64,000 nucleotides of DNA. It comes from Patescibacteria group bacterium. Its GTDB lineage: Bacteria; Patescibacteriota; Patescibacteriia; UBA10025; JBIOWE01. The notes beneath the pieces are model-generated. The model had not been told where the DNA came from, searched no databases, and saw nothing but the letters and a program-made list of their open reading frames with translations. Position 1 is the stretch's first letter. Each line of letters starts with the position of its first letter. The stretch is taken from the NCBI GenBank assembly GCA_044868145.1, contig JBIOWE010000004.1, positions 9,395 to 73,394 of the forward strand, written 5' to 3'. Positions 7,204 through 42,419 of the stretch are shown here, piece by piece. A program made the translations under genes and the position numbers.

Positions 7204-10200
7204 CTATGTCGGAGGAGGGATAAAACATGTTACACTGTTTGCTTTACAAACATTGGTGCCTTCTGTTCTACAGCAGTATTCGGTCGAAAGATTGCAACCA
7301 GTGCTGGACGAGTACGGGGGCGAGTAATGGAATGCGCAATGACGCAGCGTAAGTTGTACATTCGGCGAATTAGCGAAGTTGCCTGCGCGGTCATACGCCC
7401 GTACTTGATTTATATAGGTGCCATCGCCGTAGAAATCCGTCGGCCAGAAATACTCGTATGGCGGCGCGCCGAACGAAATGGTCCACACAAGGCTGCCATC
7501 TTGGCGGAACTCCACAACACTCACTCCGGACCCGCTATCAGACGCTGTTGCTTGGATGGTCACGTCGCTATCACTTGTCGATGGCCACGTGGCGTTGGTA
7601 CCGCCGCCGACGATTCCGCCGTTCAATGCAATTGCGTTATACCAAACGGCGGTGAAATCTACCGCAGGAGCTACCGTATCGAGCGTTATCGTATCAGTGG
7701 CTGTGGCGCTTATATGTTGCGGGCTCGCGTTATCACGTACTTGGGCATAAACGGTTTTCGTTCCATCACCCGCCGGTAGTGTCCAGCTGGCTGTCGCCGC
7801 ATACGCTATCCACGCGGACCAGGTCGTACCATCATTCGAGAAGCGCATATCCACCAAGCCATTATCGTCTGTAGCAGAAATGTTCAAAGTGACATTTTGT
7901 GAATTCGTATACTGCGCGCCGCCGTTAATGGAGAACGAAGTGATGTTTGGCGGCGAGTCAACTGGATTATTCACGGTGACATTGATCAATGTCCCACCAG
8001 TCCTGCCAGCATTATCGCGCGCGGTCGCGACCAATGAATGATTTCCGTTACCCGTAGTCAGGGTATTCCACGTCATTTTGAACGTCGTCGGCGGCGTTTG
8101 CGCGTCTGAACCGATTGGCGTAATAAAATCTCGGAATGTCACGGTTGTCGGGTTTGTGGTATTGGCAACGCTGACTTCGAGCTGGACGCTTCCAACCAAC
8201 GTAGCGCCATTTGTCGGGGTAACAAACGTAACGGCCAGGTTATTTACGACGCTTACGTCAACGTAATCGGAGCCAACGTTACCGCCGCCATCGGTCGCGC
8301 TGAGCGTAATGCGGTAGGATCCATCAGGAATGCCGCTGGTGTCCCACGTAACGTTGCAATTAGCAAACCGTGTGCCTGGGCCGAAGGGTGGTGTGGGAGG
8401 GCAGCTGAACGACGCCACAATTGCCGCATTGATACTATTGATGTCTACGATCGTAATGTCCATACGCGAGAGGCCCAGATCGTCCGTCGCGTGCGTGTTA
8501 ATGGCAACAGACCCGTACACGGTCGCACCATCAGCGGGCGCGTCAATGAACGCTTGTGGGACAATAAGGTCCTTAATATTCTCTACGCGCAGAGATTCCG
8601 ATATTTCGGTGAAGTTGCCTGCTGCATCGTAGGCGCGGGCGCGGAGCGTTTTCCAGCCGTTCGCATAACTGGTTGTTTGCCAGGCCCACGACCATCCGCC
8701 AGCAGCGTTATTGTCCTCATATTCCACCTGGAAGCCGAGAAGAAACTTCACGCTCACAACCGCATTATTATCAGTCGCGGTTACGCCAATCGTTTGTGTA
8801 CCCGAGACTGTGTCGCCGTCCCTCGGTGGAGGAATAAACTGCACGTTAGACGGAGGTGTCGTATCGTTTATAGCATTTTGCGTTGTGACGTTCACCGGAT
8901 TTGAGGTTGTTTGATTGACTGTATCGTACGCGCGGGCAGTGAGCACATGGTTACCATTAGCCACAAGAGCAGTGTTAAAGAGCCATGACCACCCATCCGC
9001 ACCGTTCAGATCAGTATTTTTGATTACGCCGTCAAGGAGAAAATCAACTTTGACCACTGCCTCATTGTCAGCTGCGTTCGCTGTCACGGTTGTATTGCCA
9101 GTCAGGTTTGCGCCATTTGTTGGGCTGGCTATGGAAATTGATGGCGGCACAACATCCGGATTGCTGACGGTCACATGAATAATTTTTTGTCCAATATTCG
9201 CATAATCGTCATACGCGATTGCTTTTAATTCGTGCACACCATTTGTGAATGTGGTCGTGTTCCAGTTGCCGCTGCAGTTTGTCACACCGTTCACATTCGT
9301 ACAGTTTATAAACTGTACGCCGTCGATTTGCAATTCAAGAATAATGACCTTATTTCTATCTGTCGCATAGGCTTCAAACTTCACGACATTCCCGGACACG
9401 ACTTCATTATCTGATGGGAACGTAATAAACACGGACGGCGGACTATTGTCCGGATTAGTGTTATTGATGTTTTTTGACTGAATCCTGACACTTTGATTAC
9501 CCACAGTATCATACGCGAGGATTTTGACCTCATGACTGCCGTCAGCGAATTGTCTGCTGTTCCATTGCCATGTCCAGCCGTTCGATCCGTCCGTATCAGT
9601 GGACTGCCGAATGCCGTCGAGGTAAAACTCAACGCGAGCCACACCGCTTGGCGCATCCGTTACGCTCGCCGTAACGGTGATTGTGCCAGAGGACCCGGAG
9701 AATGTGACGCTGGAGATAATCGGACCCGAACGGTCAGCCGCGCTTCCGACAACGCCAACAGTGTAATTAAAGCAGCCACATGACGACGGCGAGGTACACG
9801 GATTATATGATCCATACGAACCAACCCGCCATTGCGCGCCACCGTACTCAAGGTTCGCGTATAAATTAGCATCATCACCATTGTTACGCGCCTCATACAA
9901 ATAGAGATGAGATCCGGCGGAGCACTGGAAATTCTTATCGCCCTCCCGCCAGCACGCCTTCTGATCGAAGTCTGCTGGGCATGAGCTGAACGCGTTGAGC
10001 GGATCGCTTGCCATGGACCGGCCGAGCGTCTTTCCGAGCGTCTCTTGCCACGACGGCCAGCGTGAGGTGCTTAACCCGGCTATATACGTACCGCCACCGA
10101 GCGTCGGGAACGCGCCGTTCTTCGATTTGTGCACAAGCAAAGCGAGGTAGAGGTCGTACAAATCTTGTACGCGCTTCGCGTCTCGGCGAATCGCCAGTTG

Positions 10201-13200
10201 ATCGCCTGGCGTAATCCCAGGGTTCGTGTTGAACCGCCAGTTCTGTAGCAACTGGTTATAGATGCCGAGCGTTTCGCCAGACGCATCCTCATTATACGAA
10301 ATAAGATAGATATTATTATAAATACTTCCGCCAAAGATGTTCGACGCGGAAACGTACACTGTTCGCCCAGAGCGCACTGCCGGGTAGCCGTCTACCGTCA
10401 AGCTCGCAGGTGCGGGTGCAGCGGAGCCAAACTGTTTGTAATACCATTGTTCCGCGGACAGGTTGTCTTCATTTTCAAGAACACGGATCCCAATGGCGTC
10501 TGAGGAATCCGCCCGCAAGAAGAAAAACTCACGAATCAGTTCGTCGCGACCGTTTGCCGAATACGCGCCATTCTTCGCCAGCAGTGGCAGGGTCACTTCC
10601 GGAAGCACAGGATTGCCGTCGCGACAGTAATGAGTTGAGAAGTTGGTTGTCGCATCGTTGTATGGAAACGCCTGACTTGCTGGCGGGTATGGATTCGGCC
10701 ATGGGTTTTCGCACAAACTCACATTAATATCGTGGTTCACGGTTTTCGTACCAAGCGAACCCGCGTCCGCGGTTACCTGAATGACGCCGCGCCCGTTGTT
10801 TGGATTCGCAGTTACGGAAATGCTGGGGAAGGTGCCTGGACCCTCTATCTTAAACACATCCGATGGATCCAGGTTCGTGTTATCGTCAACCCACGTATAC
10901 TGCGCGGTTACCGCATTATTGAAGTTATCGACTGCCGATGCGGTCCAGTCGTGTTGGTTGCCGGCAGTAAGAGGTATCGTGTCGCCGACGCATGAGTCCG
11001 TAGCACAATTGTAGAAATCCGGCGGTTGGTACTGTCCTTGTGCAGCATTGACGACGTTCACAACGATTTTATCGAGCGAACAAAGGTTCGTGCCGCTCGT
11101 AAAGGAATACACACGGTCGATTCTGCTTGTATCAATCGCGCTGGTGGACGCGTCCCAAAGATAGACGCCATCTTTGTTGCGAATCCCCTGCTCACGCGTG
11201 TATTGGTTGCCGGCTGAACCACGCGCTCCTCCGCGTACGAGGACATTATATGGCGTGTTTGGAGCCAATGAGGATTTGGGGTTGATGACAAAACCGTCTG
11301 GCAAGGTCGCATAATTCGAGTCAACGGGTGCGCCACTATTTATTTTTAAGTCATAGATGCGTACATTCGAATCTCGTTGAGCGTCAACGAACCAGTCGTT
11401 ATCCCATTCGAGTCCGATCGTATTGGATACGCCACCTGTCAAAGTAACTTTCACAATACCAAGCTGCTGCGAGCTGGCATCCGTGCCAAGGTTCCAAATA
11501 TCCCCCACTTGCGTCTCCGCGCCTGGCCCTGGGCCATCGCTGTCGACCCATACTTTAAGATGATGATACACGCCGTATTTCGCAACGTCATTTGCACCTG
11601 CTTGCGACGTGCGGACGACGAGCGTGTAATCGCTGGCACCCGCGCCCACTGGCGAATAGCGATAGTTGACGCGTCCATTTGACGTTGTTTGAATCGCGGT
11701 TCCATTCGCAGTCCACGTGCCTGATACCGGCGTACCAATATTCCCGTTAATCGTTACGCCGGAACCGGCAGGATAGAGAATAGCGCTGTCCGCACCGACG
11801 CTTGATCCATCTATGGGTTCGTTAAGCCGAACGGTAATGGGCGTGTTCAAACAAGCATTCGAACTAATGGAGGTGAGAGACGGTCGCTGCTCGCAACAGA
11901 AATTATTGCCGGTGAAAAACGTACCCACGGTTGTTGGCGGGTCCGCGCATAATTGCTCACTGACATTCGCTTTGTCGCCACAGTACAAACCACGCACTCC
12001 TGGCGTGCCACCGGAACACACGCCAACGTCCGTAACACAGGTAAGGCCTTGGCCACTTTGCTGTCCACGTTCGCAGCAGAACCGACAGTCATTCCCAAAA
12101 GTGAAGCCTGGACTTTCGGGGGGCGGCGGAATCTTCGCCAGCGTATCGCCGGTATTACTGATACAGGACATGTCTGGCGGCGGGTTCGACGGGCCCACGT
12201 TGCAGTTCGGATTATCGGAAATTTGGCAAAGCGCGCCAACACCACCAGAACTACACAAGCCCGAGGCAACGCACTGGTTATTCTTGCAGCAGCCGGTGGC
12301 GCATTGCCCATTGTCTGAACAAGAAATGTTGAAGTCAAGCGAATTCGAAGGACAATTATTGACATACACCCGGAAAGGACCGGCTTGCGTTCCAACGGGC
12401 ACTTGTACTTTCGAAATCTGACTTAAGCCCCAGCTTCCCCCGCGAGCGATGACGTTATTATAGCTATCGTCACTGTTCGTCGAAAAGCGCGCAAAGGTGT
12501 TTGTCGTGTTCCCTCCATTGAGTAAATTAATACCCTCAGTAACGTTAACTAATGCAAGCGGTCGGCTAGCTGACGGCTGCAATCCTCCAGGGCACAAACC
12601 CGGCATTCCCGACGCGGGAACCGACACGCCAGGGATGCAGTCGCTGGTACCGCTAAAGGAAGTCGAATCACTGAAGAGCATGCTGTTCGTCCTTACCGTT
12701 ACTGCGTAGGCCTGGCCTGCGACAATGGTATTGGGCGCAGTCACCACGATTTGGCGATCGCTCCATGGATTCACACATGAGAATTGACCAGGGATTCCAC
12801 CAAATATCACCGTACCGTTCGGGCCCTGCGCCGGCTCAAAGTAGCAGCCTTTCACGGTCACGGTTGCTCCTTTTGGCCCGCTTATCGGATCAATGGAGTT
12901 AATCACCGGCTCGCATTTATCAAGCGTGATATTGCACACGCTGTTCGGACACTTGTTGCTTCCGTTCCCGTCCGGATCAGCGCAACGGCTCGGGTTAAAC
13001 GCACACGCGTCCGGATCAACTTTCAGGAACCCCCGAGCTTTCTTACCTTCCGCTTCGCCGTTGATATAGGTCGTACCCTGACTTACCGCCGTTGCAGTCG
13101 CTTTGGAATCATCCACTGCGTCTTCCGTCACCGTCGCGACCGCGGGCACGTCTGAACTCCAATTCCAATCGTAATCATTCGAAAGAATGGTGCAGTTTGG

Positions 13201-16104
13201 GCCAATCGGATTCCCTTGATACGCCTGGGTTACGCCAATGGCCACGAGCGTCGCGTTCGCGGGCATCACCACGACGCGATCAAGCGGACAGTCTGCGGTA
13301 TCGTTCTTTGTTTTAAAGTGCCAGCGATAATCAGCGTTCAGTCGTACTCCAGTTTCGCTCTTCACGTTGCTCGTGATGGTTACTTGATACGAGGTACTGG
13401 CCTGCAAATTGGACGTCGGCACAAACCTGAATCCCTCTTGGGTCGGGTTAACGGTGAAAACCGAAAGCACGCCAGCAACGTGGGTGGGATTGCTGATCGT
13501 GGAACAGCTATCGTCGTCGCATTGTTGCATGAACACGTTCGCATCAATAATTGTCGTATCGTTGATGCGCGTCGTGAACCTGCTTTGGATTTCAATATTC
13601 AAACACGCGTTTGTGCTGTCCTTGAATGGATTCGGACTGGCGTATGTGGCAAAGTCGCACGAGCCGCCAGGGCAATCGCTTTGCTGCGAGCAAGCGTTAC
13701 CGTTGTTTGCGCCGCCGAGACAAATGGCCGCGCAGTAAGAATCTTCCACAACCGACGGCACGCCGCCGCATGGAACGTCGAAGAACAAGGGGTTGCTCAC
13801 GCCGACGGAATTTTTCACGGCGACCTGATAATCGTTTGCGTTAGCAAGATCCGGAACCCTGATATTCACTTGCGTTGGTGTCCAGCCGGTAATTGCGGCA
13901 GTACGAGCGGGATTTGGCGGCAGCGTGAAGTACACAGAATCCTGCGTTGTCCCAAAATTCTCGCCAATCAGAGAGCGCGCATCGCCTCCTGCGCCGCACA
14001 TATTCGGTGTGATCTGACAAAGGCCGGGGCCGGCAGGCGCATTCACAAACTGAAAGTCAACGAGGTTGCTCCGCTCGCCGTTTGAACGTTCCAGTTGAAT
14101 CGCAACAAGGGAATTCAGAGCTACGCCAATCGTCGTCAGATCGGGCACACGGACAATCACTTGGCCATTGCTCCAACTCGCGCCAGCGCATGGGAACTCC
14201 GCGGCTAATGATTGCCCGGTGGTTTTATTACGGAAAAACACCGCGCCTTGAACGGTGCCGAATTGACCATTCGGATCGCTTCTCGCGCGTACGGTCACAA
14301 ACTGCCCAATACCGCCCTGGGGTTGACTGTTCAAACCAAGCGCTTGGCTGATTTGCGGGCTTGTAACATTAAAATCTTTGGTATTACTTTTATCCAGAGG
14401 GTTCGGCCCAATTTGGACCCGGACACCTCCATCTTTTGCTCCGGCAGACGGCAGCGTGTCATCAAACTTAACGGGGCCGGCCGGCACTTTCATGCGTATT
14501 TGATTCGTTGTCCAGCTCGACACGCAGTTCAAGGTGGGATACCGCTGGGCATTAAAGCAATTATTTCGGTCAATAACTTCGGCATTGAAATATGTATTGC
14601 CCGTGATGCCGAAATTGCTCCCATCAATCGTCACAATATCGTCGTATTTGCCGAGCGGCGTAATATTGGTAATTTCGGGTTTGCATTCAACGTTCGTGGT
14701 GTCCGTATCCGTGAAAAAATTCCACGGCTCTGCGGGGAACGTCGGGTTGCTCGCGCCAATAAAGTCGTCGGTCGGCGTTCCTTCACTGGTCGTGTCTTCG
14801 TCACCGTCGAGTTCATTGCCGCAAACATCCATAATGCCGGACGCACCGCTCTTCAGCGTGACGTTATATTCCGTGCCAGCGTCTAATGTGCTCGCCGGTC
14901 GCGTGGAAAATGAATATGGATCAGGATAATCAATGCCACCGAGTGTTACGCCTAACCCGGCTTTCGTGAGCAGGACGGAGGTATCGTTGATTGTGGAAAC
15001 GTCCATGGCGCTCGAGAATATCGATTGAATCGGCGTCATCAAACAGAGATTCGCGCTTCCGTCAACAGGACTAATGCTCGTGACTGTTGGTGGCGTGGAC
15101 AGAGTTGTTGAACCGGTATCGAAATGCCAAAGTTCATATTTGGTTGGACGCGGGCTTGCTCCGGCCTCTCGCACTCCTGTGGTAATTTCAACTTCAAAAT
15201 TTGTTCCTTCAAGAAAATTTGTGGCTGGTTTGAATTTCAAAATTTGCGGCGTTGCAACAGGTACCTGCCATGTGCCGGCGAGCTCGCTTCCCTGACACGT
15301 ACCGGCGTTACACGAAGCGGACGCGCAGTTCTTATCCTCGGTGCATGCAACGCCGTTGGCGCTTCCGCCGGTGACGCGGGCGTGCACATTACCAGGAACA
15401 GTGGCAGGGTTGATTGAGCCGTTGAATTTCGCTTGAATAATGCTGCAAAGAGGCACGTCTGTCTGGGCATCGGCCGGCCATTTCCAGGTGACGCGGAATG
15501 TGTCAGTACCCGGGATTGAACAGCCGGGCAGGCTTCCGTCGGGCGTCCAAAATCCGCCTGAACATCGTTGGCAATCAAAGGTTATGCCGTCAGGAGAGCA
15601 CGCCGAACCTCCTTGGGTGGCATTATTAATTGCTTGCATCACAAAAAGCACAATCGCCCAGGCAAGCAAAATAATCGCAAGCCCAATAACGGCTTGCGTA
15701 ATAATGCGTTTCGCTTTGCGAACGCGTTCCTCGTTACCGCCGGCGGTCAACCAAATGAACCCGCCATAGCCAATGATAATGAGCGCGATGAGCCCGAGAA
15801 GTCCGAGCACGTATTGAACGATCTTGATAACCGTAGAATAGAGGTCTGCCGTGCCAAGGCCAAACGTCGTGCCAAGATTGGTCGCAAGATTCACTTGCGC
15901 CAACACCGACGACGGAAACAATCCAATGGCACCAAGCACAAGAAAACTCACGACCAAGCCGGCGATGATGCCCAGCGCGAACGCTGGCGCAGCCTTTCGT
16001 CCAAAAACAAATCGCCGTCGCGGCTGAACGGCTCGACGATTCTCCTGATCATGAGATTGTGACGAAGCGACTGGTAACAATCGCTTGGGATCTCCTGCTG
16101 GCAT
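7204..16104 (-). CDS. Giant (2966 aa) cell-surface protein. N-terminal double-TM pilin-like (TrbC/VirB2-like) segment, Cys-rich modules, and at least 8 tandem roughly 90-aa Ig-like domains at the C-terminus.
   Basis: Single uninterrupted ORF of 8.9 kb. N-terminal hydrophobic pair LIALIIIGYGGFIWLTAGGNEE...IGLAIILLAWAIVLF. Repeated Ig-like units of the form VTxTAxAxDxxGV..V.F..DG.......G..W.W......NGxH.L.A.AxDxAGN. All plus-strand ORFs inside it lack an RBS and are antisense artefacts. Confidence 0.85.
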   Translation of the reverse strand: MPAGDPKRLLPVASSQSHDQENRRAVQPRRRFVFGRKAAPAFALGIIAGLVVSFLVLGAIGLFPSSVLAQVNLATNLGTTFGLGTADLYSTVIKIVQYVLGLLGLIALIIIGYGGFIWLTAGGNEERVRKAKRIITQAVIGLAIILLAWAIVLFVMQAINNATQGGSACSPDGITFDCQRCSGGFWTPDGSLPGCSIPGTDTFRVTWKWPADAQTDVPLCSIIQAKFNGSINPATVPGNVHARVTGGSANGVACTEDKNCASASCNAGTCQGSELAGTWQVPVATPQILKFKPATNFLEGTNFEVEITTGVREAGASPRPTKYELWHFDTGSTTLSTPPTVTSISPVDGSANLCLMTPIQSIFSSAMDVSTINDTSVLLTKAGLGVTLGGIDYPDPYSFSTRPASTLDAGTEYNVTLKSGASGIMDVCGNELDGDEDTTSEGTPTDDFIGASNPTFPAEPWNFFTDTDTTNVECKPEITNITPLGKYDDIVTIDGSNFGITGNTYFNAEVIDRNNCFNAQRYPTLNCVSSWTTNQIRMKVPAGPVKFDDTLPSAGAKDGGVRVQIGPNPLDKSNTKDFNVTSPQISQALGLNSQPQGGIGQFVTVRARSDPNGQFGTVQGAVFFRNKTTGQSLAAEFPCAGASWSNGQVIVRVPDLTTIGVALNSLVAIQLERSNGERSNLVDFQFVNAPAGPGLCQITPNMCGAGGDARSLIGENFGTTQDSVYFTLPPNPARTAAITGWTPTQVNIRVPDLANANDYQVAVKNSVGVSNPLFFDVPCGGVPSVVEDSYCAAICLGGANNGNACSQQSDCPGGSCDFATYASPNPFKDSTNACLNIEIQSRFTTRINDTTIIDANVFMQQCDDDSCSTISNPTHVAGVLSVFTVNPTQEGFRFVPTSNLQASTSYQVTITSNVKSETGVRLNADYRWHFKTKNDTADCPLDRVVVMPANATLVAIGVTQAYQGNPIGPNCTILSNDYDWNWSSDVPAVATVTEDAVDDSKATATAVSQGTTYINGEAEGKKARGFLKVDPDACAFNPSRCADPDGNGSNKCPNSVCNITLDKCEPVINSIDPISGPKGATVTVKGCYFEPAQGPNGTVIFGGIPGQFSCVNPWSDRQIVVTAPNTIVAGQAYAVTVRTNSMLFSDSTSFSGTSDCIPGVSVPASGMPGLCPGGLQPSASRPLALVNVTEGINLLNGGNTTNTFARFSTNSDDSYNNVIARGGSWGLSQISKVQVPVGTQAGPFRVYVNNCPSNSLDFNISCSDNGQCATGCCKNNQCVASGLCSSGGVGALCQISDNPNCNVGPSNPPPDMSCISNTGDTLAKIPPPPESPGFTFGNDCRFCCERGQQSGQGLTCVTDVGVCSGGTPGVRGLYCGDKANVSEQLCADPPTTVGTFFTGNNFCCEQRPSLTSISSNACLNTPITVRLNEPIDGSSVGADSAILYPAGSGVTINGNIGTPVSGTWTANGTAIQTTSNGRVNYRYSPVGAGASDYTLVVRTSQAGANDVAKYGVYHHLKVWVDSDGPGPGAETQVGDIWNLGTDASSQQLGIVKVTLTGGVSNTIGLEWDNDWFVDAQRDSNVRIYDLKINSGAPVDSNYATLPDGFVINPKSSLAPNTPYNVLVRGGARGSAGNQYTREQGIRNKDGVYLWDASTSAIDTSRIDRVYSFTSGTNLCSLDKIVVNVVNAAQGQYQPPDFYNCATDSCVGDTIPLTAGNQHDWTASAVDNFNNAVTAQYTWVDDNTNLDPSDVFKIEGPGTFPSISVTANPNNGRGVIQVTADAGSLGTKTVNHDINVSLCENPWPNPYPPASQAFPYNDATTNFSTHYCRDGNPVLPEVTLPLLAKNGAYSANGRDELIREFFFLRADSSDAIGIRVLENEDNLSAEQWYYKQFGSAAPAPASLTVDGYPAVRSGRTVYVSASNIFGGSIYNNIYLISYNEDASGETLGIYNQLLQNWRFNTNPGITPGDQLAIRRDAKRVQDLYDLYLALLVHKSKNGAFPTLGGGTYIAGLSTSRWPSWQETLGKTLGRSMASDPLNAFSSCPADFDQKACWREGDKNFQCSAGSHLYLYEARNNGDDANLYANLEYGGAQWRVGSYGSYNPCTSPSSCGCFNYTVGVVGSAADRSGPIISSVTFSGSSGTITVTASVTDAPSGVARVEFYLDGIRQSTDTDGSNGWTWQWNSRQFADGSHEVKILAYDTVGNQSVRIQSKNINNTNPDNSPPSVFITFPSDNEVVSGNVVKFEAYATDRNKVIILELQIDGVQFINCTNVNGVTNCSGNWNTTTFTNGVHELKAIAYDDYANIGQKIIHVTVSNPDVVPPSISIASPTNGANLTGNTTVTANAADNEAVVKVDFLLDGVIKNTDLNGADGWSWLFNTALVANGNHVLTARAYDTVNQTTSNPVNVTTQNAINDTTPPSNVQFIPPPRDGDTVSGTQTIGVTATDNNAVVSVKFLLGFQVEYEDNNAAGGWSWAWQTTSYANGWKTLRARAYDAAGNFTEISESLRVENIKDLIVPQAFIDAPADGATVYGSVAINTHATDDLGLSRMDITIVDINSINAAIVASFSCPPTPPFGPGTRFANCNVTWDTSGIPDGSYRITLSATDGGGNVGSDYVDVSVVNNLAVTFVTPTNGATLVGSVQLEVSVANTTNPTTVTFRDFITPIGSDAQTPPTTFKMTWNTLTTGNGNHSLVATARDNAGRTGGTLINVTVNNPVDSPPNITSFSINGGAQYTNSQNVTLNISATDDNGLVDMRFSNDGTTWSAWIAYAATASWTLPAGDGTKTVYAQVRDNASPQHISATATDTITLDTVAPAVDFTAVWYNAIALNGGIVGGGTNATWPSTSDSDVTIQATASDSGSGVSVVEFRQDGSLVWTISFGAPPYEYFWPTDFYGDGTYINQVRAYDRAGNFANSPNVQLTLRHCAFHYSPPYSSSTGCNLSTEYCCRTEGTNVCKANSVTCFIPPPT

Positions 16105-18819: not shown

Positions 18820-19446
18820 TTACGTACCGCTCAGCGAATAGGATGGTTCTGTAAAATGTTTGAACTTGATGAACGGCCAAATCCGGAGCCAGGCGCGGCC
18901 GACCAGATATTTCCTTTGAACAGTTCCAAACGAGCGGGAATCAAGACTCGCGGTTCGATTATCGCCCATGACAAAAAATTCGTCTGAACCGACCGTCGTC
19001 GTCGAGTCGCCGTACGTTTCAAGGTTGGAAACAAGATACGATTCAGTCAGCGTAAAACCGTTGAGATTATTCGCATCGTAGATAATCACTGATCCATCTT
19101 GAACCTCGACGCGCTCGCCTGGCAATCCAATGATTCGTTTAATAAAAAACTGTGACGGATCGCGCGGGTACCTCAATACCACGATATCACCACGACCGGG
19201 GTCACTGAATCGATATGTGATCTCATCAATCAATAAATATTCATGATCATGGAAGGTAGGTTCCATAGAAGCACCCTTAACGTAGAACGGTTGCACGAGA
19301 AAATACCGCACCGGCACAATAATTGCGAGCGCGATGAGAACAATTTTCCCCAGCTCAATGAGAAAACTGCCGAAGGAGCTCGTGTCTTTTGCTCTGTTGG
19401 TTGTTTTTGTTTCTTTGTTTCGTTCCGGAGAAATGAACGTTGCCAT
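18820..19446 (-). CDS. lepB: Signal peptidase I
   Basis: GASMEPT catalytic Ser box and GDNRTASLDSR box E. 208 aa. Confidence 0.9.
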   Translation of the reverse strand: MATFISPERNKETKTTNRAKDTSSFGSFLIELGKIVLIALAIIVPVRYFLVQPFYVKGASMEPTFHDHEYLLIDEITYRFSDPGRGDIVVLRYPRDPSQFFIKRIIGLPGERVEVQDGSVIIYDANNLNGFTLTESYLVSNLETYGDSTTTVGSDEFFVMGDNRTASLDSRSFGTVQRKYLVGRAWLRIWPFIKFKHFTEPSYSLSGT

Positions 19447-19501
19447 AATGATATTGAGTATGACCGTGGATGAGGCGCCGCATGACTGGACTTTGCGGAA
19501 A

Positions 19502-19679
19502 TGGACGCGAGAGGAATCGAACCTCTGACCTTACGGACCTGCCCGCCCAAATGTGGGCGCTGCTGGACTCGGACCAGCGACCTTTGCAATGTGAATGCAA
19601 CGCTCTACCAACTGAGCTAAGCGCCCACATTTAGGCGGGTGAATGAACCGTACGCTCTAACCGGCTGAGCTACGCGTCC
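19502..19679 (-). tRNA. Interrupted tRNA with anticodon CAU (Met or Ile2). 5' exon 19643-19679, 3' exon 19502-19538. A 104-nt intervening segment (19539-19642) contains a complete tRNA-Val.
   Basis: 5' half GGACGCGTAGCTCAGCCGGTTAGAGCGTACGGTTCAT and 3' half (GT)CCGTAAGGTCAGAGGTTCGATTCCTCTCGCGTCCA. Perfect 7-bp acceptor stem, D-arm, 5-bp anticodon stem (TACGG/CCGTA) and TTCGATT T-loop. The halves are separated by the inserted segment. No CCA is encoded. Confidence 0.6.
19554..19626 (-). tRNA. tRNA-Val (anticodon CAC), 73 nt, nested inside the anticodon-loop insertion of the tRNA above
   Basis: GGGCGCTTAGCTCAGTTGGTAGAGCGTTGCATTCACATTGCAAAGGTCGCTGGTCCGAGTCCAGCAGCGCCCA. Clean cloverleaf with U33 and A37. 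The T-loop reads TCCGAGT, with C at position 55. No CCA is encoded. Confidence 0.85.
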
Positions 19680-19682
19680 AGT

Positions 19683-19850
19683 CAAAGTCGGGCAGGTGTG
19701 AATGCAACGCTCCTGCCTCTTCGGCAGGTCGCCGTTGTAGCCTCTACGGCTACTCGCCGAGGAGGCGAGAGACGACTAACCGACTGCCTGTCCCGCCGAA
19801 GCCCGAGCTTAGCGAGGAGCGACGGCGGGGAGCTAATTGCCCAAACAAAA
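19683..19850. ncRNA. GC-rich, hairpin-dense region of about 170 nt and unknown identity, directly upstream (minus sense) of the tRNA cluster; candidate structured ncRNA or leader
   Basis: Consecutive stems GGCAGG/CCTGCC (twice), GTAGCC/GGCTAC, TCGCC/GGCGA and CCCGCCG/CGGCGGG. GC content far above the neighbouring DNA. No ORF with an RBS. Confidence 0.25.
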
Positions 19851-19916
19851 AAGCGCTAGAATAAGCAGCATTATATCACGTCACGGGGAAAAATCAAGCC
19901 AAAAAAGCACAATGCT

Positions 19917-27287: not shown

Positions 27288-28400
27288 ATGATAGCAAACC
27301 AACGACAAATTGTCAAGGGTGATGCTCCCTACTGGGTGGCCATTTCTTTCGTTGAGAATTTTGGTCCGCAAAAATTTAAGAGACTCGCAATGTTCTTTCC
27401 AGATATGAAAACCGCTTGGGAAGCGTCCGAGAAAGAATTACTCTGGGCGGGTCTTGCGGAAAAAGACGTTGACGCAATAAAGCAGCAGCGCGCGACGCTC
27501 GACCCCCATGCAACATGGGCGCACCTGGGCACTCTCGGCATTCGCGCAATCACCTTGCAAGACCCTGAGTATCCGGATCTGCTCAAGCAAATTTACGGGC
27601 CACCTCCGGTTCTTTATGCAAAGGGGCGCTCGCTCAAGCGAATTCAGCCAATTATTGCCGTGGTGGGAACGCGCAACATGACATCGTATGGAAGAATGGC
27701 TACCGAATCAATTGTCCATGACCTCGCTCGAGCAGGTGTTGTTATTGTATCCGGACTCGCGCTCGGGATTGATGCGGAAGCGCACGCTGCATGCCTGCAA
27801 GCGAAAGGGGTGACTATAGCGGTGCTCGGCAGCGGATTAGCGCAGATTTATCCGCGCGAAAACGAGCGCCTTGCTAAACGCATTGAACAACAAGGCACGC
27901 TCGTCAGCGAATACCCGCCGCACGTGCGCCCACAAAAATACCATTTCCCAGTGCGCAATAGGATCATAGCCGGACTCGCGCTCGGCACGATCGTGATTGA
28001 GGGCGACGAAGATTCAGGATCTCTGATCACGGCGAGGAGAGCGCTTGATGAAAATCGCGACGTGTTTGCGGTACCAGGCAACATTTTTCACGCCTCTTCA
28101 CGCGGCCCCAACGCGCTTATTCAAATGGGGGCAAAACCGGTCGTGTCGGCTCGAGACGTGCTCGAGGCGCTCGACATCAAGCAAGTCGAACAAATGGTCG
28201 CAGTCCAGGAGTCTTTTGGGGATACGACGGAGGAAAAAATCGTACTCGAACTACTCACGGGTGAACCCCTGCACATTGACGAATTAATTAAGAGGAGTAA
28301 ACTGGAAACCAGCGTTGTACATTCAACGCTCACCCTTCTCGAAATGAAGGGATTAGCGAAAAATACCGGCGCTATGCAATACGTGCGAGCCCGTAAATAA
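27288..28400 (+). CDS. dprA: DNA processing protein DprA/Smf
   Basis: IAVVGTRNMTSYG...SGLALGIDAEAH...FAVPG Rossmann-like DprA core, plus a C-terminal winged-helix domain. Confidence 0.9.
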   Translation: MIANQRQIVKGDAPYWVAISFVENFGPQKFKRLAMFFPDMKTAWEASEKELLWAGLAEKDVDAIKQQRATLDPHATWAHLGTLGIRAITLQDPEYPDLLKQIYGPPPVLYAKGRSLKRIQPIIAVVGTRNMTSYGRMATESIVHDLARAGVVIVSGLALGIDAEAHAACLQAKGVTIAVLGSGLAQIYPRENERLAKRIEQQGTLVSEYPPHVRPQKYHFPVRNRIIAGLALGTIVIEGDEDSGSLITARRALDENRDVFAVPGNIFHASSRGPNALIQMGAKPVVSARDVLEALDIKQVEQMVAVQESFGDTTEEKIVLELLTGEPLHIDELIKRSKLETSVVHSTLTLLEMKGLAKNTGAMQYVRARK

Positions 28401-37766: not shown

Positions 37767-37841
37767 TGGTACCAGGGGTGGGGATTGAACCCACGACCTC
37801 GGGCTTATGAGTCCCACGCTCTACCACTGAGCTACCCTGGC
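37767..37841 (-). tRNA. tRNA with anticodon CAU, elongator Met-like, with the CCA tail encoded
   Basis: GCCAGGGTAGCTCAGTGGTAGAGCGTGGGACTCATAAGCCCGAGGTCGTGGGTTCAATCCCCACCCCTGGTACCA. G1-U72 pair. C11-G24 in the D-stem, so not an initiator. Confidence 0.85.
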
Positions 37842-37946
37842 TCCTTGGTTGCCCTTCGGATTGGCTCAGGGCAATTTTTTTAAATAGAGAAAAAGCTTTG
37901 GAGGTTTTGTTTGTGGATTGGAGAAATACTGAGCTTGTCGAAGTAT

Positions 37947-38023
37947 TGGTTGCGGGGGTGGGATTTGAACCCACGACCTGCGGATTATGAGCCCGCCGAG
38001 CTACCAGACTGCTCTACCCCGCT
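37947..38023 (-). tRNA. Initiator tRNA-fMet (CAU), CCA encoded
   Basis: AGCGGGGTAGAGCAGTCTGGTAGCTCGGCGGGCTCATAATCCGCAGGTCGTGGGTTCAAATCCCACCCCCGCAACCA. 1-72 mismatch (A.A) and three G-C pairs at the base of the anticodon stem. Near-identical to E. coli tRNA-fMet. Confidence 0.85.
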
Positions 38024-38095
38024 ATGAGAGCACTCAACGATATATAAAGAGTCCTACGTATTATATGACAAAACCACAAATTTTGCAAGCGTAAT

Positions 38096-38179
38096 TGCCG
38101 GGAGAGAGACTCGAACTCTCATGGGGTTGCCCCCGCAGGATTTTGAGTCCTGTGCGTCTACCGATTCCGCCATCCCGGC
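38096..38179 (-). tRNA. tRNA-Leu (anticodon CAA) with a long variable arm; no CCA encoded
   Basis: GCCGGGATGGCGGAATCGGTAGACGCACAGGACTCAAAATCCTGCGGGGGCAACCCCATGAGAGTTCGAGTCTCTCTCCCGGCA. Confidence 0.85.
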
Positions 38180-38209
38180 ATGTAATGTTGGATTGTAGGA
38201 AAAAATGTT

Positions 38210-39007: not shown

Positions 39008-39751
39008 CTAGAGTAGGCTGTCAATGACTTGCTTAAACGACTCTAAGGGCAGCGCCCCAAAGATCAGCTTACCATTCACAAACGTTGCTGGCGTCCCGTT
39101 CACTCCGAACTGCGAGCCTTCGGCAAAATCAGTTTGCACTTTTTGCGCGAACTCTCCGTCATCAAGACAAGAGGAGAACTTTGAACTATCAACACCAACT
39201 TCTTTTGCCCATTGCTTTAAATTGTCGAAGCTAAGCTGTAGCTGGTTTTGAAACAGCAAATCATGGTATTCCCAAAATTTACTTTCGCCAGCGAGGCTCG
39301 CCACGCACTCAGACGCTTCCGCGGATTTCTGCGCCATCGGATGGATGGACGAGAGCGGAAAGTGGCGGTACACAAGCTTTACTTGGCCTTCATATTGCTC
39401 AAGTATCTGGAGAAGCGTCGGCGCAATCTTTTGACAGTAGGGGCATTGAAAATCCGCATATTCAACAAGAGTAATGGATGCGTTAATGTCACCACGAACA
39501 TGGTCGACGGCGCGCAACCGTATATCTACTGGCTGCGATGGTGTAGGATTTGTCCCCGTACCGGCGACTGTTCCCGACGTGGTCGCGGTGTTGGTTTCGG
39601 ACGCGTGTGTACCTACTCCCATATCAAATGTCAAAAATAAAACGAGCGATACAAGGCTCATAAGGGAAAGACCGACCAGCACGCCCATCACGAATGATGC
39701 TTTTGGAGTTGCGTAAAATCCCTTGGGTGGTTCGTTCGTTTGTTCCTGCAT
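39008..39751 (-). CDS. DsbA-family thiol:disulfide oxidoreductase, membrane-anchored (CPYC active site)
   Basis: N-terminal TM anchor. FQCPYCQKIAPTLLQI thioredoxin-fold CxxC motif. Confidence 0.8.
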   Translation of the reverse strand: MQEQTNEPPKGFYATPKASFVMGVLVGLSLMSLVSLVLFLTFDMGVGTHASETNTATTSGTVAGTGTNPTPSQPVDIRLRAVDHVRGDINASITLVEYADFQCPYCQKIAPTLLQILEQYEGQVKLVYRHFPLSSIHPMAQKSAEASECVASLAGESKFWEYHDLLFQNQLQLSFDNLKQWAKEVGVDSSKFSSCLDDGEFAQKVQTDFAEGSQFGVNGTPATFVNGKLIFGALPLESFKQVIDSLL

Positions 39752-39786
39752 AGTAAAATAAGCTGCCTGCGAGGAATGCGCGCTTG

Positions 39787-40587
39787 TTACTGCCCCAGCG
39801 CGCGGTCAATCAGCAGTGTAAAATATTCCGACGGGATAACGCCAGCATACTTTGTATTGTTGATGAAAAATGTGGGGGTACCGGTTGCACCGGCGAGCAC
39901 CGCATCGTCAAAATCCTGCTGAATCTCCGCCTGGTATTTCTCGGAATCAAGGCATTGGTTAAATTGATTCATATCAAGGCCGATTTGCTCAGCGTACGCT
40001 TTCAGGGCTGCAAGAGACAAATTATTCTGATTGATGAATATCTTGTCGTGCATCTCCCAAAACTTTCCTTGCTCATGGCTGCATTCAGCCGCTTCGGCGG
40101 CATTCAGGGCGTCCGGATGGCTATCTACGTTGGGAAAGTCGCGGTATTGAAACTTGATCCGGTTACCGTACTTTTGAATGATTTCGCGAACAATGGGAAA
40201 CGCCTGCAAACAATACGGGCATTGGAAGTCGGAAAATTCTACAATGACAACGGCGGCGTCCGCCGCTCCGACGTACGGGTCGTCCGAGCTCTCAATAGTC
40301 GCCGTACCCATGATTTGGACGTTGTTTGTGTTGATGAACGTCTGTCCACCTAGATTTAAATTTCCGGTTCGGATATTCTGGATGACCAGGGCGGCAAAAA
40401 ACGCGACGACAACAAGAAGTCCGATGCCAAACACAATGAGAATACCAAGCCACCACCGACGCGTGTGCCGGTACATGGGCTGTGGTGGATGTTGATCTAT
40501 CTCGTTCATGTTCTTATGCCTCCCTATTATATGGAATGGCCGCATGATTGACAAATACGCAACATTTGATAGCATCAGTATCAACAA
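39787..40587 (-). CDS. DsbA-family thiol:disulfide oxidoreductase, membrane-anchored (CPYC)
   Basis: FQCPYCLQAFPIVREI motif. Paralog of the neighbouring genes. Confidence 0.8.
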   Translation of the reverse strand: MLILMLSNVAYLSIMRPFHIIGRHKNMNEIDQHPPQPMYRHTRRWWLGILIVFGIGLLVVVAFFAALVIQNIRTGNLNLGGQTFINTNNVQIMGTATIESSDDPYVGAADAAVVIVEFSDFQCPYCLQAFPIVREIIQKYGNRIKFQYRDFPNVDSHPDALNAAEAAECSHEQGKFWEMHDKIFINQNNLSLAALKAYAEQIGLDMNQFNQCLDSEKYQAEIQQDFDDAVLAGATGTPTFFINNTKYAGVIPSEYFTLLIDRALGQ

Positions 40588-40598
40588 AGGGAGGTACG

Positions 40599-40859
40599 AT
40601 GTTCTTTAAACTTCTAAGAATGCTCGTCATTTTTGCGCCGTGCGTTGGCACATATTTTCTTGCGAACTGGGCAATTCAGCACTATCTATTGCCCTGGTTG
40701 TTCTGGAACGTCCTGAAGTCTGCCCTATCGTATGAAAGCAGGGTTGTCCTCGCAATCATGGTATTCTACGTTGAGGTAATCCTTGCCGCCAATCTTGTTG
40801 ATCGTACGCTATTCAGCAAACCAAAACAAAAGCCGCAACGACTGCAAAAGGCTACGTGA
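40599..40859 (+). CDS. Small membrane protein of about 86 aa; hypothetical
   Basis: ATG preceded by AAAGGGAGG. Two or three TM helices. Followed by a clean terminator (feature 40872..40899). Confidence 0.45.
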   Translation: MFFKLLRMLVIFAPCVGTYFLANWAIQHYLLPWLFWNVLKSALSYESRVVLAIMVFYVEVILAANLVDRTLFSKPKQKPQRLQKAT

Positions 40860-40871
40860 TCCATGTTCGAA

Positions 40872-40899
40872 GCACCGCCTCAGAAACGGTGCTTTTTTT
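40872..40899 (+). terminator. Rho-independent terminator (GCACCGcctcagaaaCGGTGC + T7)
   Basis: Hairpin plus U-tract read directly. Confidence 0.7.
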
Positions 40900-40974
40900 G
40901 TTTGGGTGCTGCCCAGATTGCTTGACGGAACGCGACATTTTAGTGTACGTTGTAGAAAGAAAAAAGGAGGGAGT

Positions 40975-41259
40975 ATGCTCTTTAGAATAATTTCGGCAGT
41001 GCTAGGTTTTACGTTCGTATCTTCACTTTCCGCATGGTCGAAGGTTAGTGCCGGGGGTCAAACGACTCACGTGCTTTCCAAGTGGGAAGCATTCGCTCCA
41101 ATGATCATTCTCTTGGTCTGCGTGCTAGCCTTACTCGTGTGGGTTGGATTGTGGCAAAAGCGTAATACGCGTAAGCCAGGCCCTGGGGATACCGCGCGGT
41201 TCCCTCACTGCGACTGCCCCGAAGGTAATCCCGAAAAGGGAGATTTGAATAAACACTGA
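40975..41259 (+). CDS. Small secreted/membrane protein of about 94 aa; hypothetical
   Basis: ATG preceded by AAAAGGAGGGAG. N-terminal signal-like helix plus a second TM. Followed by a perfect terminator (feature 41254..41277). Confidence 0.45.
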   Translation: MLFRIISAVLGFTFVSSLSAWSKVSAGGQTTHVLSKWEAFAPMIILLVCVLALLVWVGLWQKRNTRKPGPGDTARFPHCDCPEGNPEKGDLNKH

Positions 41260-41277
41260 CCCACGGTCAGTGTTTTT
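41254..41277 (+). terminator. Rho-independent terminator (CACTGACCcacGGTCAGTG + T5)
   Basis: Perfect 8-bp stem and U-tract. Confidence 0.75.
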
Positions 41278-41336
41278 CTATAAATAAATCGAGGCGCGAA
41301 AACCTGCACTTGGCTTGTTTTGGCTGTTCAAACGTT

Positions 41337-42323
41337 TTATATGCTATTGTTTTGGGAGGGTTGTCTCGGTTTTCTTTTTCTTCTTACAAGAACAAAGAAA
41401 ATTGCGATAGCGATAAACGCTGGCATAAACCAATCGGTGAAGTGTTGAGACCAGAGTAATACTTTTTGACTCGCCTGAAAATAAACATCAATCAATCCGG
41501 CTTTCGTGAGAAATCCAAAAAATGAATTTGTTCCATTGGAAAGAATAAAGATGAACCCGAGCAGGAAAAAAAGAGTTGCAGCGATCAGATTCGTCGAATG
41601 AACATGGAGCTCTTTTCCGCCGATACTGAATGTCCAAAGCTTGCCACGCAGTAGCCCGCGTTCATGGGTTTTGAATCTGTCGAAAAAGTACGCGAGAATA
41701 AAAAGCGGAAGCGCAAGCCCGAGACTGTAGACAACCAGTAAAAGGCTTGATTGGAAAGGATTTGCGTATGTGCTCGCCAGCGTAATAATCGCACCAATGA
41801 TCGGTGCTGTGCATGTGCCGGCAGCAAATCCTGTTGTGATTCCCAGTAAGTACACGGAGCCGAAGCTTTGTTTGTTACTTTGGATTCGCAGGAACGAAGG
41901 AAGAAACGAAAAGGATTTTTCGAACAGGAGCATAAGGCCAAATATAAAAAATAAGATGCCGGCGATAACAAACAGAGTGCCCTGATAGTTGATGAAAATC
42001 TTTGCGACGAGTGATGCGGAAAACCCAAGCGGCACATAGACCGTGACGAGTCCCAGAAAAAAGACAAATGTCATTTCAACAAGCCTACGGCGTTCTTTGA
42101 ACGCGTACGCAAAAAAAGCTGGTAGAAGAGCTGCTGAACATGGCGAAAGAAGCGCGAGGAATCCTCCGATCAATGCGGCGAAGAGAGAAACATGAATCGG
42201 CAATGCTCCCGTGTTCCCAACTCGCAAAACCGGCGTCGTGAGTATAACAATGCCTACCGTCAACAGAGCAGTAATCGCGATAAAAAAGACAAGTGGTGAT
42301 GGCTTGAAATTCGTTTGATCCAT
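41337..42323 (-). CDS. ccdA: Cytochrome c biogenesis / disulfide electron-transfer membrane protein, CcdA/DsbD family
   Basis: Polytopic. Conserved Cys in TM1 (LLSPCSAALLPAFFAY) and a second Cys (AGTCTAPIIGAI), typical of the DsbD core. Confidence 0.8.
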   Translation of the reverse strand: MDQTNFKPSPLVFFIAITALLTVGIVILTTPVLRVGNTGALPIHVSLFAALIGGFLALLSPCSAALLPAFFAYAFKERRRLVEMTFVFFLGLVTVYVPLGFSASLVAKIFINYQGTLFVIAGILFFIFGLMLLFEKSFSFLPSFLRIQSNKQSFGSVYLLGITTGFAAGTCTAPIIGAIITLASTYANPFQSSLLLVVYSLGLALPLFILAYFFDRFKTHERGLLRGKLWTFSIGGKELHVHSTNLIAATLFFLLGFIFILSNGTNSFFGFLTKAGLIDVYFQASQKVLLWSQHFTDWFMPAFIAIAIFFVLVRRKRKPRQPSQNNSI

Positions 42324-42419
42324 AGCGTCAGTATACCAAAATTCACGGCTTCCGAAGAAAACCGTGAATCGTGAGAGAGTCTGTTACGTTTACCTTAGCA
42401 TGAACGACCACGTGAATCT

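Follow-up and report, generated by a model that had tools for sequence, protein, structure and literature searches.

A nested pair of tRNA-Val(CAC)-like genes in a Patescibacteria group bacterium, best explained as a stack of gene copies built by a helix-bounded insert

On the minus strand of a 64,000-nucleotide (nt) stretch of DNA from a Patescibacteria group bacterium (assembly GCA_044868145.1, contig JBIOWE010000004.1, positions 9,395 to 73,394; hereafter the window), two matching halves of one transfer RNA (tRNA) gene enclose a second, complete tRNA gene. The contig, 124 kb in all, was assembled from sequencing run SRR30692719. This arrangement raises the question of whether the interrupted outer gene is a split or intron-containing tRNA whose halves are reunited, or the remains of a gene that was broken and replaced by what now lies inside it. 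We find that the locus is best explained as a stack of tRNA-Val(CAC) gene copies. The reading that we favor, with a probability of roughly 0.55, is that a helix-bounded insert carrying a tRNA replaced the resident gene, with the inner copy now working and the outer copy a relic.

The 5' part of the outer gene (19644..19679, minus strand) comprises an acceptor strand (GGACGCG), TA, a D arm (GCTC AGCCGGTTA GAGC), a G, the anticodon-stem strand TACGG, and the start of the anticodon loop, TTCA (positions 32 to 35). We placed the end of this part by comparison with three similar loci, L160, L212, and L144 (loci fetched for comparison are designated here by L numbers). The 3' part (19502..19537, minus strand) holds T38, the anticodon-stem strand CCGTA, AGGTC, a T arm (AGAGG TTCGATT CCTCT), the acceptor strand CGCGTCC, and the discriminator A. 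These halves, of 36 to 37 nt each, pair with one another along the minus strand from 19679 to 19502. Between them, in the outer anticodon loop, lies an insert of 106 nt (19643..19538), and nucleotides 36 and 37 of the outer loop are missing. The insert opens (19627..19643, minus strand) with a tail, TTCA, a GC clamp, CCCGCC, a spacer, TAAATG, and T(-1). It continues with an intact 73-nt tRNA-Val(CAC) gene (19554..19626, minus strand), recognized by both ARAGORN and Rfam, and closes (19538..19553, minus strand) with the spacer CATTTG, the GC clamp GGCGGG, and the tail CAGG. Its ends form a closing helix of 12 base pairs (bp) with one G.U pair, CCCGCCTAAATG (19639..19628) with CATTTGGGCGGG (19553..19542). 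Together with U(-1):A73 and the inner acceptor stem, this helix makes up a 20-nt inverted repeat that is 95% complementary.

When the 178 nt from 19502 to 19679 were folded with RNAfold, the result was a nested double cloverleaf of -86.9 kcal/mol, compared to -58.1 +/- 3.8 kcal/mol for shuffled versions (n = 200; z = -7.5), none of which was as stable. A first-pass annotation of this DNA, made from its letters alone, had described the pairing of the halves, the complete tRNA-Val(CAC) within the insert, and the 12-bp helix with its single G.U pair, and all three were borne out. The same annotation had called the two outer halves canonical, but the outer anticodon loop is not: the single-stranded linkers of that loop measure 8 nt (TTCATTCA) and 5 nt (CAGGT). 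The inner tRNA-Val was the sole ARAGORN call at the locus (span 19553-19626), and running ARAGORN with its intron search on, a check that had been proposed for the outer gene, still gave no call there. Likewise, Rfam searches of the intergenic region at both the gathering and the E <= 10 thresholds returned the inner tRNA alone (RF00005, 70.1 bits, E = 3e-13), with no match in the flanks. Once joined, the outer halves were accepted by ARAGORN as a tRNA at every junction tested. The inner and outer tRNAs of the window are 68% identical, and the anticodon arm and T stem of the inner gene match those of the tRNA-Val(CAC) gene adjoining lepB in L004. CCA is not encoded in the inner gene. Its T loop reads TCCGAGT, with a C in place of the near-universal U55, as is also the case for the inner tRNA-Val of L223 (GGTCCGAATCC).

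Which tRNA did the outer gene once encode? The initial reading was of a split tRNA(CAU) that might be the essential tRNA-Ile2. The body of the outer gene is 78 to 86% identical to tRNA-Val(CAC) genes at the lepB-linked site of relatives (81 to 86% for the genes or outer copies of L196, L008, L180, and L144), and 61 to 62% identical to the two CAU tRNAs of the window. In L144 the outer copy shares its anticodon stem (TACGG/CCGTA) and T arm with the window outer gene, and TTCAC precedes its insert. Sister nests in tRNA-Val(GAC) and tRNA-Val(TAC) genes (L160 and L212) read TTGA/TTCA-CCCGCC and TTTA/TTCA-CCCCGCC, where the slash marks the junction, and inserts of this kind have the form TTCA-CCCGCC...GGCGGG-CA(A/G)G. 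Because those nests read likewise, the second TTCA of the window is assigned to the insert end, and the apparent CAT anticodon spans the joint between exon and insert. We set the window junction from these sister nests because placing junctions by alignment to the inner tRNA fails for divergent pairs such as the one in the window. The 3' junction (GGCGGGCAGG, then T and the stem strand) is identical in the window, L144, L172, and L197.

The junction defined by the family leaves an outer loop of 5 nt (TTCA+T), and CAT arises only at junctions that give G or U at position 37. Taken with the sequence identities, the assignment of the second TTCA, the lack of bulge-helix-bulge geometry, and the ordinary tandem tRNA-Val genes of relatives at this spot, these points leave the tRNA(CAU) or tRNA-Ile2 reading unsupported. 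A tRNA-Ile2 or tRNA-Met requires a 7-nt loop with U33, C34 A35 U36, and A37, which the outer gene lacks. All of the splice junctions that we tried gave CAT, CAG, or other anticodons depending on the junction, and none of the products was canonical for Met, Ile2, or Val. Judged by sequence similarity, the outer gene is a tRNA-Val(CAC) homolog, not a Met or Ile2 gene, and annotators should not count its halves as tRNA-Met or tRNA-Ile2.

The conserved downstream neighbor of the nest is lepB (signal peptidase I; 18820..19446, minus strand), which served as our orthology anchor for the tRNA-Val site. The closest LepB relatives are at most 63% identical, their source names, where given, being Uhrbacteria or Patescibacteria group, and the gene order around lepB is kept in many such genomes. 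Across 80 syntenic genomes, the spacer between GT2 and lepB usually contains tRNA-Val(CAC). The first-pass annotation had advised looking for the same nested design in related genomes. The design recurs in 3 of these 80 (L008, L046, and L053) and is absent from L003 and L004, the first two relatives that we read, where the spacer holds ordinary tandem tRNA-Val(CAC) and tRNA-Val(GAC) genes. In L008, a Falkowbacteria metagenome-assembled genome, CCGCACCTTTTAT..ATAAAAGGTGCGG enclose a tRNA-Val(CAC) within a tRNA-like shell. The L046 insert, CCCCGCACCATTT..AAATGGTGCGGGG, replaces the anticodon arm, and its inner gene is accompanied by duplicates of the leader and trailer that belong to the outer gene. 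In L053 there are two tRNAs, with a closing helix on each.

Other nests at the lepB-linked gene were seen in L144/L166, L147, L158, L180, L196, L200, and L222; in L180 the outer gene is a tRNA-Val(TAC) and the inner one a tRNA-Val(CAC). The insert lies in the D loop in L158, at 26/27 in L046, L176, and L222, and within positions 35 to 38 in the window, L144, L147, L180, L196, and L200. Terminus types also vary among lineages at this gene, and many lineages have no insert. Such variation in insertion point and terminus type at a single orthologous gene argues for repeated independent events and not for one conserved design. Several related contigs (L002/L007, L005, L006, and L025) end 70 to 270 nt upstream of lepB, at the tRNA-Val site or just upstream of it, a pattern compatible with assemblies having broken on repeated tRNA layers.

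Nests of this kind are not confined to the lepB-linked site. We scanned metagenomes for pairs of D-arm starts separated by fewer than ~76 nt and enclosing a CCGC, and recovered at least 120 stretches representing at least 99 unique candidate nests, ~36 of them well preserved. Among the inner tRNAs are the Thr (GGT, CGT, and TGT), Val (CAC, GAC, and TAC), Ile(GAT), Met, Pro, and Ala types, further nests on the same contigs involve Arg(CCT) and class II Leu(CAA), and the inner tRNA is usually of the outer one's type. Among the matches listed, joined outer halves were callable by ARAGORN in 30 of 99 candidates, and 24 of those 30 had the anticodon of the inner gene. Over the same 99 listed nests, the duplex formed by the flanks of the inner tRNA had a median energy of -18.3 kcal/mol, compared to -6.5 kcal/mol for 212 other tRNAs on the same contigs; energies of -15 kcal/mol or lower were reached by 56 of the 99 nests and 15 of the 212 control tRNAs.

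By appearance, the hosts are mostly Patescibacteria. The proteins of L185 and L168 (an outer-membrane beta-barrel with a CarboxypepD_reg domain, and DPP IV) point outside that phylum, to a diderm and probably Bacteroidota origin, so the nests are not confined to it. Several nests occur together on each of L228, L247, and L255. Individual cases differ in detail. A tRNA-Ile(GAT) nest in L226 (~1330-1560) has an exact insertion at 35/36, the site of Patescibacteria group I introns; a class II tRNA-Leu(CAA) gene in L228 (~2230-2520) holds both a hairpin-only and a tRNA-carrying insert; and the insert of a tRNA-Arg(CCT) nest in L138 (~1340-1600) lies in the D loop. A generic two-D-arm scan of viral contigs yielded mostly leader hairpins that copy the tRNA 5' end, a motif different from the nests. 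In these cases (L091, L106/L110/L124, L108/L128, L119, and L129) a hairpin precedes the tRNA and its 5' arm copies the acceptor and D-arm start, as in GGTCCAGTAGCTCAGGGG..CCCCTTTGCTATCTGGACC, then GGTCCAGTAGCTCAG. Scanning viral contigs for terminus pairs gave chance matches in GC-rich genes and hairpins like repetitive extragenic palindromic (REP) sequences, and nothing else.

The ends of the inserts fall into three types. Type A (CCTGCCCGCC ... GGCAGGCGGG) is found in the 3' strand of the D stem, and type B (CCCGCCTGCC ... GGCGGGCAGG), its reverse complement, at 30/31 and 37/38 (for example, TTTACA/../T in L197); both have exact junctions. Type C (TTCA-CCCCGCACC ... GGTGCGGGG-CA(A/T/G)G) occurs in Ile, Met, Val, Pro, and Ala genes, its 5' end reading TTCA-CCCGCC or TTCA-CCCCGCACC in the Ile, Met, and Val nests, and its junctions lack either 2 loop nt or one strand of the anticodon stem. 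The helix made by the A and B ends is 10 bp long and always includes a C.A mismatch and a U.G pair. Of the 10 positions of CCTGCCCGCC and GGCAGGCGGG, 9 are paired (8 by Watson-Crick pairs and one by U.G) and one is the C.A mismatch, whereas CCCCGCACC pairs with GGTGCGGGG perfectly. Between the GC clamp and the inner tRNA is a variable, often AT-rich spacer whose two sides stay complementary. Although the A and B termini are mutually reverse-complementary, the tRNA orientation is constant. Over the whole family, the insertion points are exposed sites of the tRNA, in the D stem (~23/24), at 26/27, at 30 to 32, and at 35 to 38. The window has terminal inverted repeats of this kind (CCCGCC..GGCGGG), and its insert is a hybrid, C-like at the 5' end and B-like at the 3' end. 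By the resemblance of its termini, it is a member of a widespread family of helix-bounded, tRNA-carrying inserts.

No target-site duplication was found at the nest junctions, which are exact in the A and B types and 2 nt short in the TTCA type. The sole possible target duplication that we saw is a TTGA on either side of an insert in L069 (2350-2479), which has CCCCGCACC..GGTGCGGGG-type termini and a 10-bp spacer helix around ~90 nt of AT-rich, non-tRNA DNA. In the window, a search for dispersed copies of the motif gave eight one-mismatch matches against 3.5 expected, only the nest copies being real, and the fetched loci have roughly one motif copy each, located at the nest. Hairpin-only versions with the same ends occur within outer copies and in intergenic DNA (L142, L174, L136, L024, L043, and L228). 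We also excised GC hairpins in silico from the same contigs; a tRNA call resulted at 3 of 635, none a convincing stand-alone interrupted gene, so small helix-bounded inserts do not appear in otherwise sole genes. In one viral-collection contig (L258/L262, 1610-1728), hairpins of the form CCTGCCCGCC-N13-17-GGCAGGCGGG recur in REP-like fashion between conserved flanks; they have the A-type termini but no tRNA. In L140 and L234 (~180-460 and 520-800), 3' halves of tRNA-Ile are arrayed in tandem, with ..AAAATTTAGGCGGGC(A/G)AG after each. The outer T stem of L234 is a chimera with inner-gene sequence, pointing to gene conversion among the layers.

If the outer genes of the family are compared with the tRNAs inside them, it is the outer genes that carry more damage. 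Unpaired stem positions averaged 2.22 in outer and 0.19 in inner tRNAs of the 36 best-preserved nests (Wilcoxon P = 3e-5), and outer copies range continuously from perfect to badly damaged. The L046 outer gene has an 85-nt insertion in its T loop, those of L008 and L235 are missing the anticodon arm, that of L204 has lost its 3' half, and that of L234 has the chimeric T stem described above. At C-type junctions, the window's included, the anticodon loop cannot be rebuilt. Moreover, the outer gene nearly always repeats the inner anticodon, and therefore nothing requires it. A general splicing system would predict many sole genes interrupted by hairpins, so that the 3 of 635 outcome also favors a relic. 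That the outer gene might be a pseudogene created by insertion had been the fallback of the first-pass annotation, and it is this fallback that the evidence favors.

Further layers surround the nest. Upstream of it, at 19697..19842 (minus strand), is the 5' portion of a third tRNA-Val(CAC)-like gene that stops at position 37 (GGGCAAT TA GCTC ... GAGCG TTGCA TTCACA). Its last 16 nt, GAGCGTTGCATTCACA, are identical to 19605..19590 of the inner tRNA, and its TGGGCAATTAGCTC is similar to the inner tRNA 5' end. This layer is broken by GC-rich hairpins, CCCGCCG..CGGCGGG-ACAGG (19829..19787) and CCTGCC-GAAGA-GGCAGG (~19728..19712), which are similar to the hairpin-only inserts of L174, L138, and L142. 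We infer that the fragment is what is left, at the 5' end, of an older, third tRNA-Val(CAC) layer. Right after its position 37 comes CCTGCCCG (19689..19696, minus strand), the 5' terminus motif of the family; it matches the motif CCTGCCCGAC with one mismatch, agrees with the A-type termini, and is complementary to CGGGCAGG at the 3' end of the insert (19545..19538), forming a 9-nt perfect inverted repeat. On the other side, a downstream remnant, GCAAAGTCCAGTCA (GCAAAGTCC; 19483..19496, minus strand), could be what decay has left of the outermost layer's TGCAA AGGTC, its 3' anticodon-stem strand and variable region, and GTCCAGTCA in this remnant pairs with the leader sequence TGACTGGAC at 19684..19676. 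Multilayer stacks are seen in the window, L164, and the L140 arrays. A predicted sigma-70-like promoter (19870..19897, minus strand; TTGATT, 16 nt, TG-TATAAT) lies upstream of the entire nest, the promoter search returning one site where 0.2 were expected. No terminator-like sites were found between this promoter and lepB.

Under the reading that we favor, the 106-nt insert, consisting of a tRNA-Val(CAC) and its inverted-repeat flanks, would have entered the anticodon loop of a resident tRNA-Val(CAC) gene and inactivated it. The inner gene would now provide tRNA-Val(CAC), with the outer gene as its dead predecessor and the remnants of older layers further out. The whole stack is probably transcribed, along with lepB, from the single promoter at 19897..19870. 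In the transcript, the flanks would form a leader-trailer duplex of ~20 bp, continuous with the inner acceptor stem, and the inner tRNA could be released by RNase III-type cleavage of the duplex, RNase P, and a 3' trimming nuclease such as RNase Z. Because CCA is not encoded, we propose that a CCA-adding enzyme completes the molecule. The outer halves would be unable to give a decoding tRNA. The nested topology, the shared termini, their recurrence, the differing insertion points, and the larger number of broken outer stem pairs are direct observations; that the insert is or was mobile, or was copied in, is our interpretation of them. It could have originated as a small mobile cassette, tolerated only if its cargo complements the gene that it disrupts, or as an inserted hairpin, with rescue by copying of an intact version of the same gene into the hairpin tip. 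Given L046 and the opposite termini around cargo of fixed orientation, we lean towards a process at the DNA level that is partly local.

Several observations weigh against the view that the outer copies are simply relics of an invading insert. A flawless outer cloverleaf with exact junctions is present in 13 of the 36 best-preserved nests. Between L175 and L250, the outer tRNA-Ile genes differ at 1 of 73 positions and the inner genes at 13 of 77, and termini and flanks also differ, a pattern that fits selection on the outer gene or swapping of cassettes and not simple neutral decay. The favored reading does not account for the same-type rule, by which the inner tRNA usually matches the outer one across at least eight tRNA families with homologous flanks. 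The presence of the outer gene's own leader and trailer on the L046 inner gene suggests a local duplication rather than imported cargo. The motif is not dispersed, and we found neither a transposase or integrase nor duplicated target sites. For the enzymes, and for a splicing enzyme, we searched the ~38 larger open reading frames (ORFs) of the 64-kb window and found none; those with a Pfam match have housekeeping or envelope functions.

Some of these points are better accommodated if the primary invader was not a cassette but a small GC hairpin (CCTGCCCGCC..GGCAGGCGGG and variants) that landed in an essential, single-copy tRNA gene. Survivors would then have copied an intact same gene, with some of its leader and trailer, into the hairpin tip by template switching or break repair, with an uninterrupted sister or allele as the template. 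The inner gene would be local rather than cargo, and the functional outcome would be as in the reading that we favor. We regard this account as possible, though distinctly the less probable of the two. Hairpin-only versions and REP-like arrays with the same ends do exist, and the L046 inner gene, with its borrowed leader and trailer, is what such copying would leave. It would account directly for the usual sharing of isoacceptors between inner and outer genes in at least eight tRNA families with homologous flanks, and for A and B termini that are reverse-complementary around tRNAs of fixed orientation. However, the compensatory stem changes between inner and outer genes (L197, L137, and the window, at 68% identity) resemble a foreign allele, two precise template switches are required, and an uninterrupted donor allele was not observed.

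It is unlikely, in our judgment, that the inserts are genuine bacterial tRNA introns or split-tRNA clamps, with the conserved 10-bp helix read by protein machinery. In such a scheme, a protein endonuclease and ligase would recognize the conserved helix, or the GC clamp would keep the outer pieces paired once RNase P and RNase Z had freed the inner tRNA, each transcript giving two tRNAs. The exact A- and B-type junctions restore a perfect cloverleaf in the 13 of 36 nests mentioned above, the insertion points and the occurrence of several inserts per gene recall archaeal noncanonical introns, the fixed C.A mismatch and U.G pair suggest a sequence-specific factor, and the outer halves of L175 and L250 are conserved. 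Nonetheless, the Ile-type outer genes, which are the conserved ones, lack one strand of the anticodon stem, and outer stem mismatches are ~10 times those of inner genes. No stand-alone tRNA gene with a hairpin insert alone was found among the 635 hairpins, and an outer gene that repeats the inner anticodon is not needed. The ORFs scanned in the window held no splicing enzyme. At the window itself, maturation in the manner of archaeal split tRNAs, as had been suggested, is unsupported. A 7-nt loop with a purine at 37 is not obtained at any junction, the family junction leaving 5 nt, and the bulge-helix-bulge (BHB) geometry that the first-pass annotation had recommended looking for was not found in the RNAfold structure, which instead has an internal loop, of 8 nt on one side and 5 nt on the other, and then an unbroken helix of 12 bp (20 bp with the acceptor stem).

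Doubtful, too, is the idea that the outer shell and closing helix were selected to aid the inner precursor, the outer gene itself never decoding. The shell might assist folding of the precursor, attract RNase P or RNase III, or shield the transcript, as engineered tRNA scaffolds do. Acceptor, D, and T arms are intact in many outer genes despite damage to the anticodon arm (the window, L008, and the Ile group), a compensatory change keeps the L046 leader and trailer paired, and most nests have a strong flank helix. Against this, plain tRNA-Val genes suffice at the same site in most relatives, outer genes form a continuum of decay that includes lost T arms and 3' halves, and shell geometry is not conserved, with insertion positions that vary. 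Finally, a chimeric joining of two tRNA-Val genes during metagenome assembly is very improbable: related contigs do break right at the tRNA site (L002/L007, L005, and L006), indicating a region that is hard to assemble, but the same architecture is present in ~100 contigs from independent projects and assemblers, the spacers covary, and the shared termini match no adapter known to us.

The genes around the site include LCP, GT2, lepB, hisS, a HIT-family gene, rpsU, yqeY, and the gene for a 2966-amino-acid surface protein (7204-16104, minus strand) with T4SS_pilin and Big domains. Elsewhere in the window, a tRNA cluster (37767-38180, minus strand) of Leu(CAA), an initiator-like Met(CAT), and Met(CAT) is ordinary, without closing helices or terminus motifs. 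Three DsbA-like thioredoxin paralogs lie beside a DsbD-like membrane protein (39008-43220, minus strand). The window also encodes DprA (27288-28400, plus strand), which suggests that the organism takes up DNA; this would be relevant if recombination exchanges cassettes.

If the favored reading is correct, bacterial tRNA genes have been repeatedly overwritten by short helix-bounded units, each of which brings a fresh copy of the very tRNA that it breaks, leaving Russian-doll stacks of relics behind. This would be a mode of tRNA gene turnover, and possibly a means by which a selfish element persists, for which we found no earlier description. The nested layout explains why tRNA finders see the inner gene alone, and it may explain the assembly breaks at such sites. 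The family has 10-bp termini that are conserved, insertion points that are well defined, and numerous natural variants, and is thus a testable system that could reveal a new mechanism of insertion or duplication or, less probably, protein-dependent tRNA splicing in bacteria. Were the inserts introns after all, the clean nests (Thr and Val genes with CCTGCCCGCC..GGCAGGCGGG ends) would yield two mature tRNAs per gene and would be a bacterial counterpart to archaeal intron splicing and intron transposition. We searched full-text literature, which most subscription journals lie outside, for nested, interrupted, or split bacterial tRNAs and for bacterial BHB motifs, and found nothing relevant beyond one paper on group I introns (PMC13011429). 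The tRNA-in-tRNA insertion family thus appears to be undescribed.

How does this family compare with systems that are already known? In archaea, tRNA genes carry BHB introns at noncanonical positions, and intron transposition occurs in Thermoproteales; split tRNAs are found in Nanoarchaeum and permuted tRNAs in Cyanidioschyzon. Like the nests, archaeal introns break tRNA genes at the D arm, at 26/27, in the anticodon stem, and at 37/38, sometimes with several inserts per gene; in both cases helices unite the halves and standard tRNA finders miss the interrupted gene. The BHB motif consists of two 3-nt bulges with a 4-bp helix between them at the exon-intron borders. The nests differ in several respects: no BHB motif was found, the closing helix runs to 10 to 20 bp and has a sequence peculiar to the family, a complete tRNA matching the outer one in type lies within the insert, the loop cannot be rebuilt at many of the junctions, and the hosts are bacteria. 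We rejected a BHB intron for the window, where excision does not restore a canonical tRNA, as it does for A and B nests elsewhere (13 of 36). Neither EndA nor an accompanying ligase was present among the ORFs scanned in the 64-kb window.

Group I introns have a conserved catalytic core, P3-P9, and are typically longer than 200 nt. In Patescibacteria, self-splicing group I introns of several hundred nucleotides are known in tRNA genes (PMC13011429), in a paper that does not mention nested tRNAs; they are the sole tRNA introns for which we found a description in this phylum. They share with the nests the phylum, the interruption of the anticodon loop, and the escape of the affected genes from annotation; their 35/36 site is also used in L226, and the 5' junction of the window falls after position 35. 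The window insert, by contrast, is 106 nt long, of which 73 are tRNA, and has no group I core or corresponding Rfam match even at E <= 10. The first-pass annotation was right that this is not a group I intron and that the arrangement is unusual for bacteria.

REP sequences and REPINs, Rickettsia palindromic elements (RPE), and the Correia miniature inverted-repeat transposable elements (MITEs) of Neisseria are, like the nest inserts, short, noncoding, GC-rich palindromes that can sit inside genes, RNA genes among them, and form hairpins once transcribed. Hairpins in transcripts of Correia elements are cleaved by RNase III. REP sequences mobilized by RAYT are extragenic and accompany a Y1 (HUH) transposase gene, and hairpin-only relatives of the nest termini form REP-like repeats (L258/L262). 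In contrast to these elements, the nests have no target-site duplication, are neither dispersed nor of high copy number, are essentially limited to tRNA genes, and enclose the cognate tRNA. Integrative elements that target tRNA genes, such as phages and genomic islands, resemble the nests in that incoming DNA restores the function of the disrupted tRNA. Such elements are kilobases in length, encode an integrase, and leave direct repeats of the tRNA 3' part at attL and attR, whereas the nest inserts measure ~100 nt, their ends are inverted and their topology is nested, and the window ORFs that we scanned include no integrase. For the window insert we therefore ruled out, in turn, a group I intron, a BHB intron, an integrase att duplication, and a typical MITE. 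By analogy, it would act most like the small palindromic elements (REPIN, RPE, and Correia), with the added feature that, as in integrative elements that target tRNA genes, the incoming DNA brings its own replacement.

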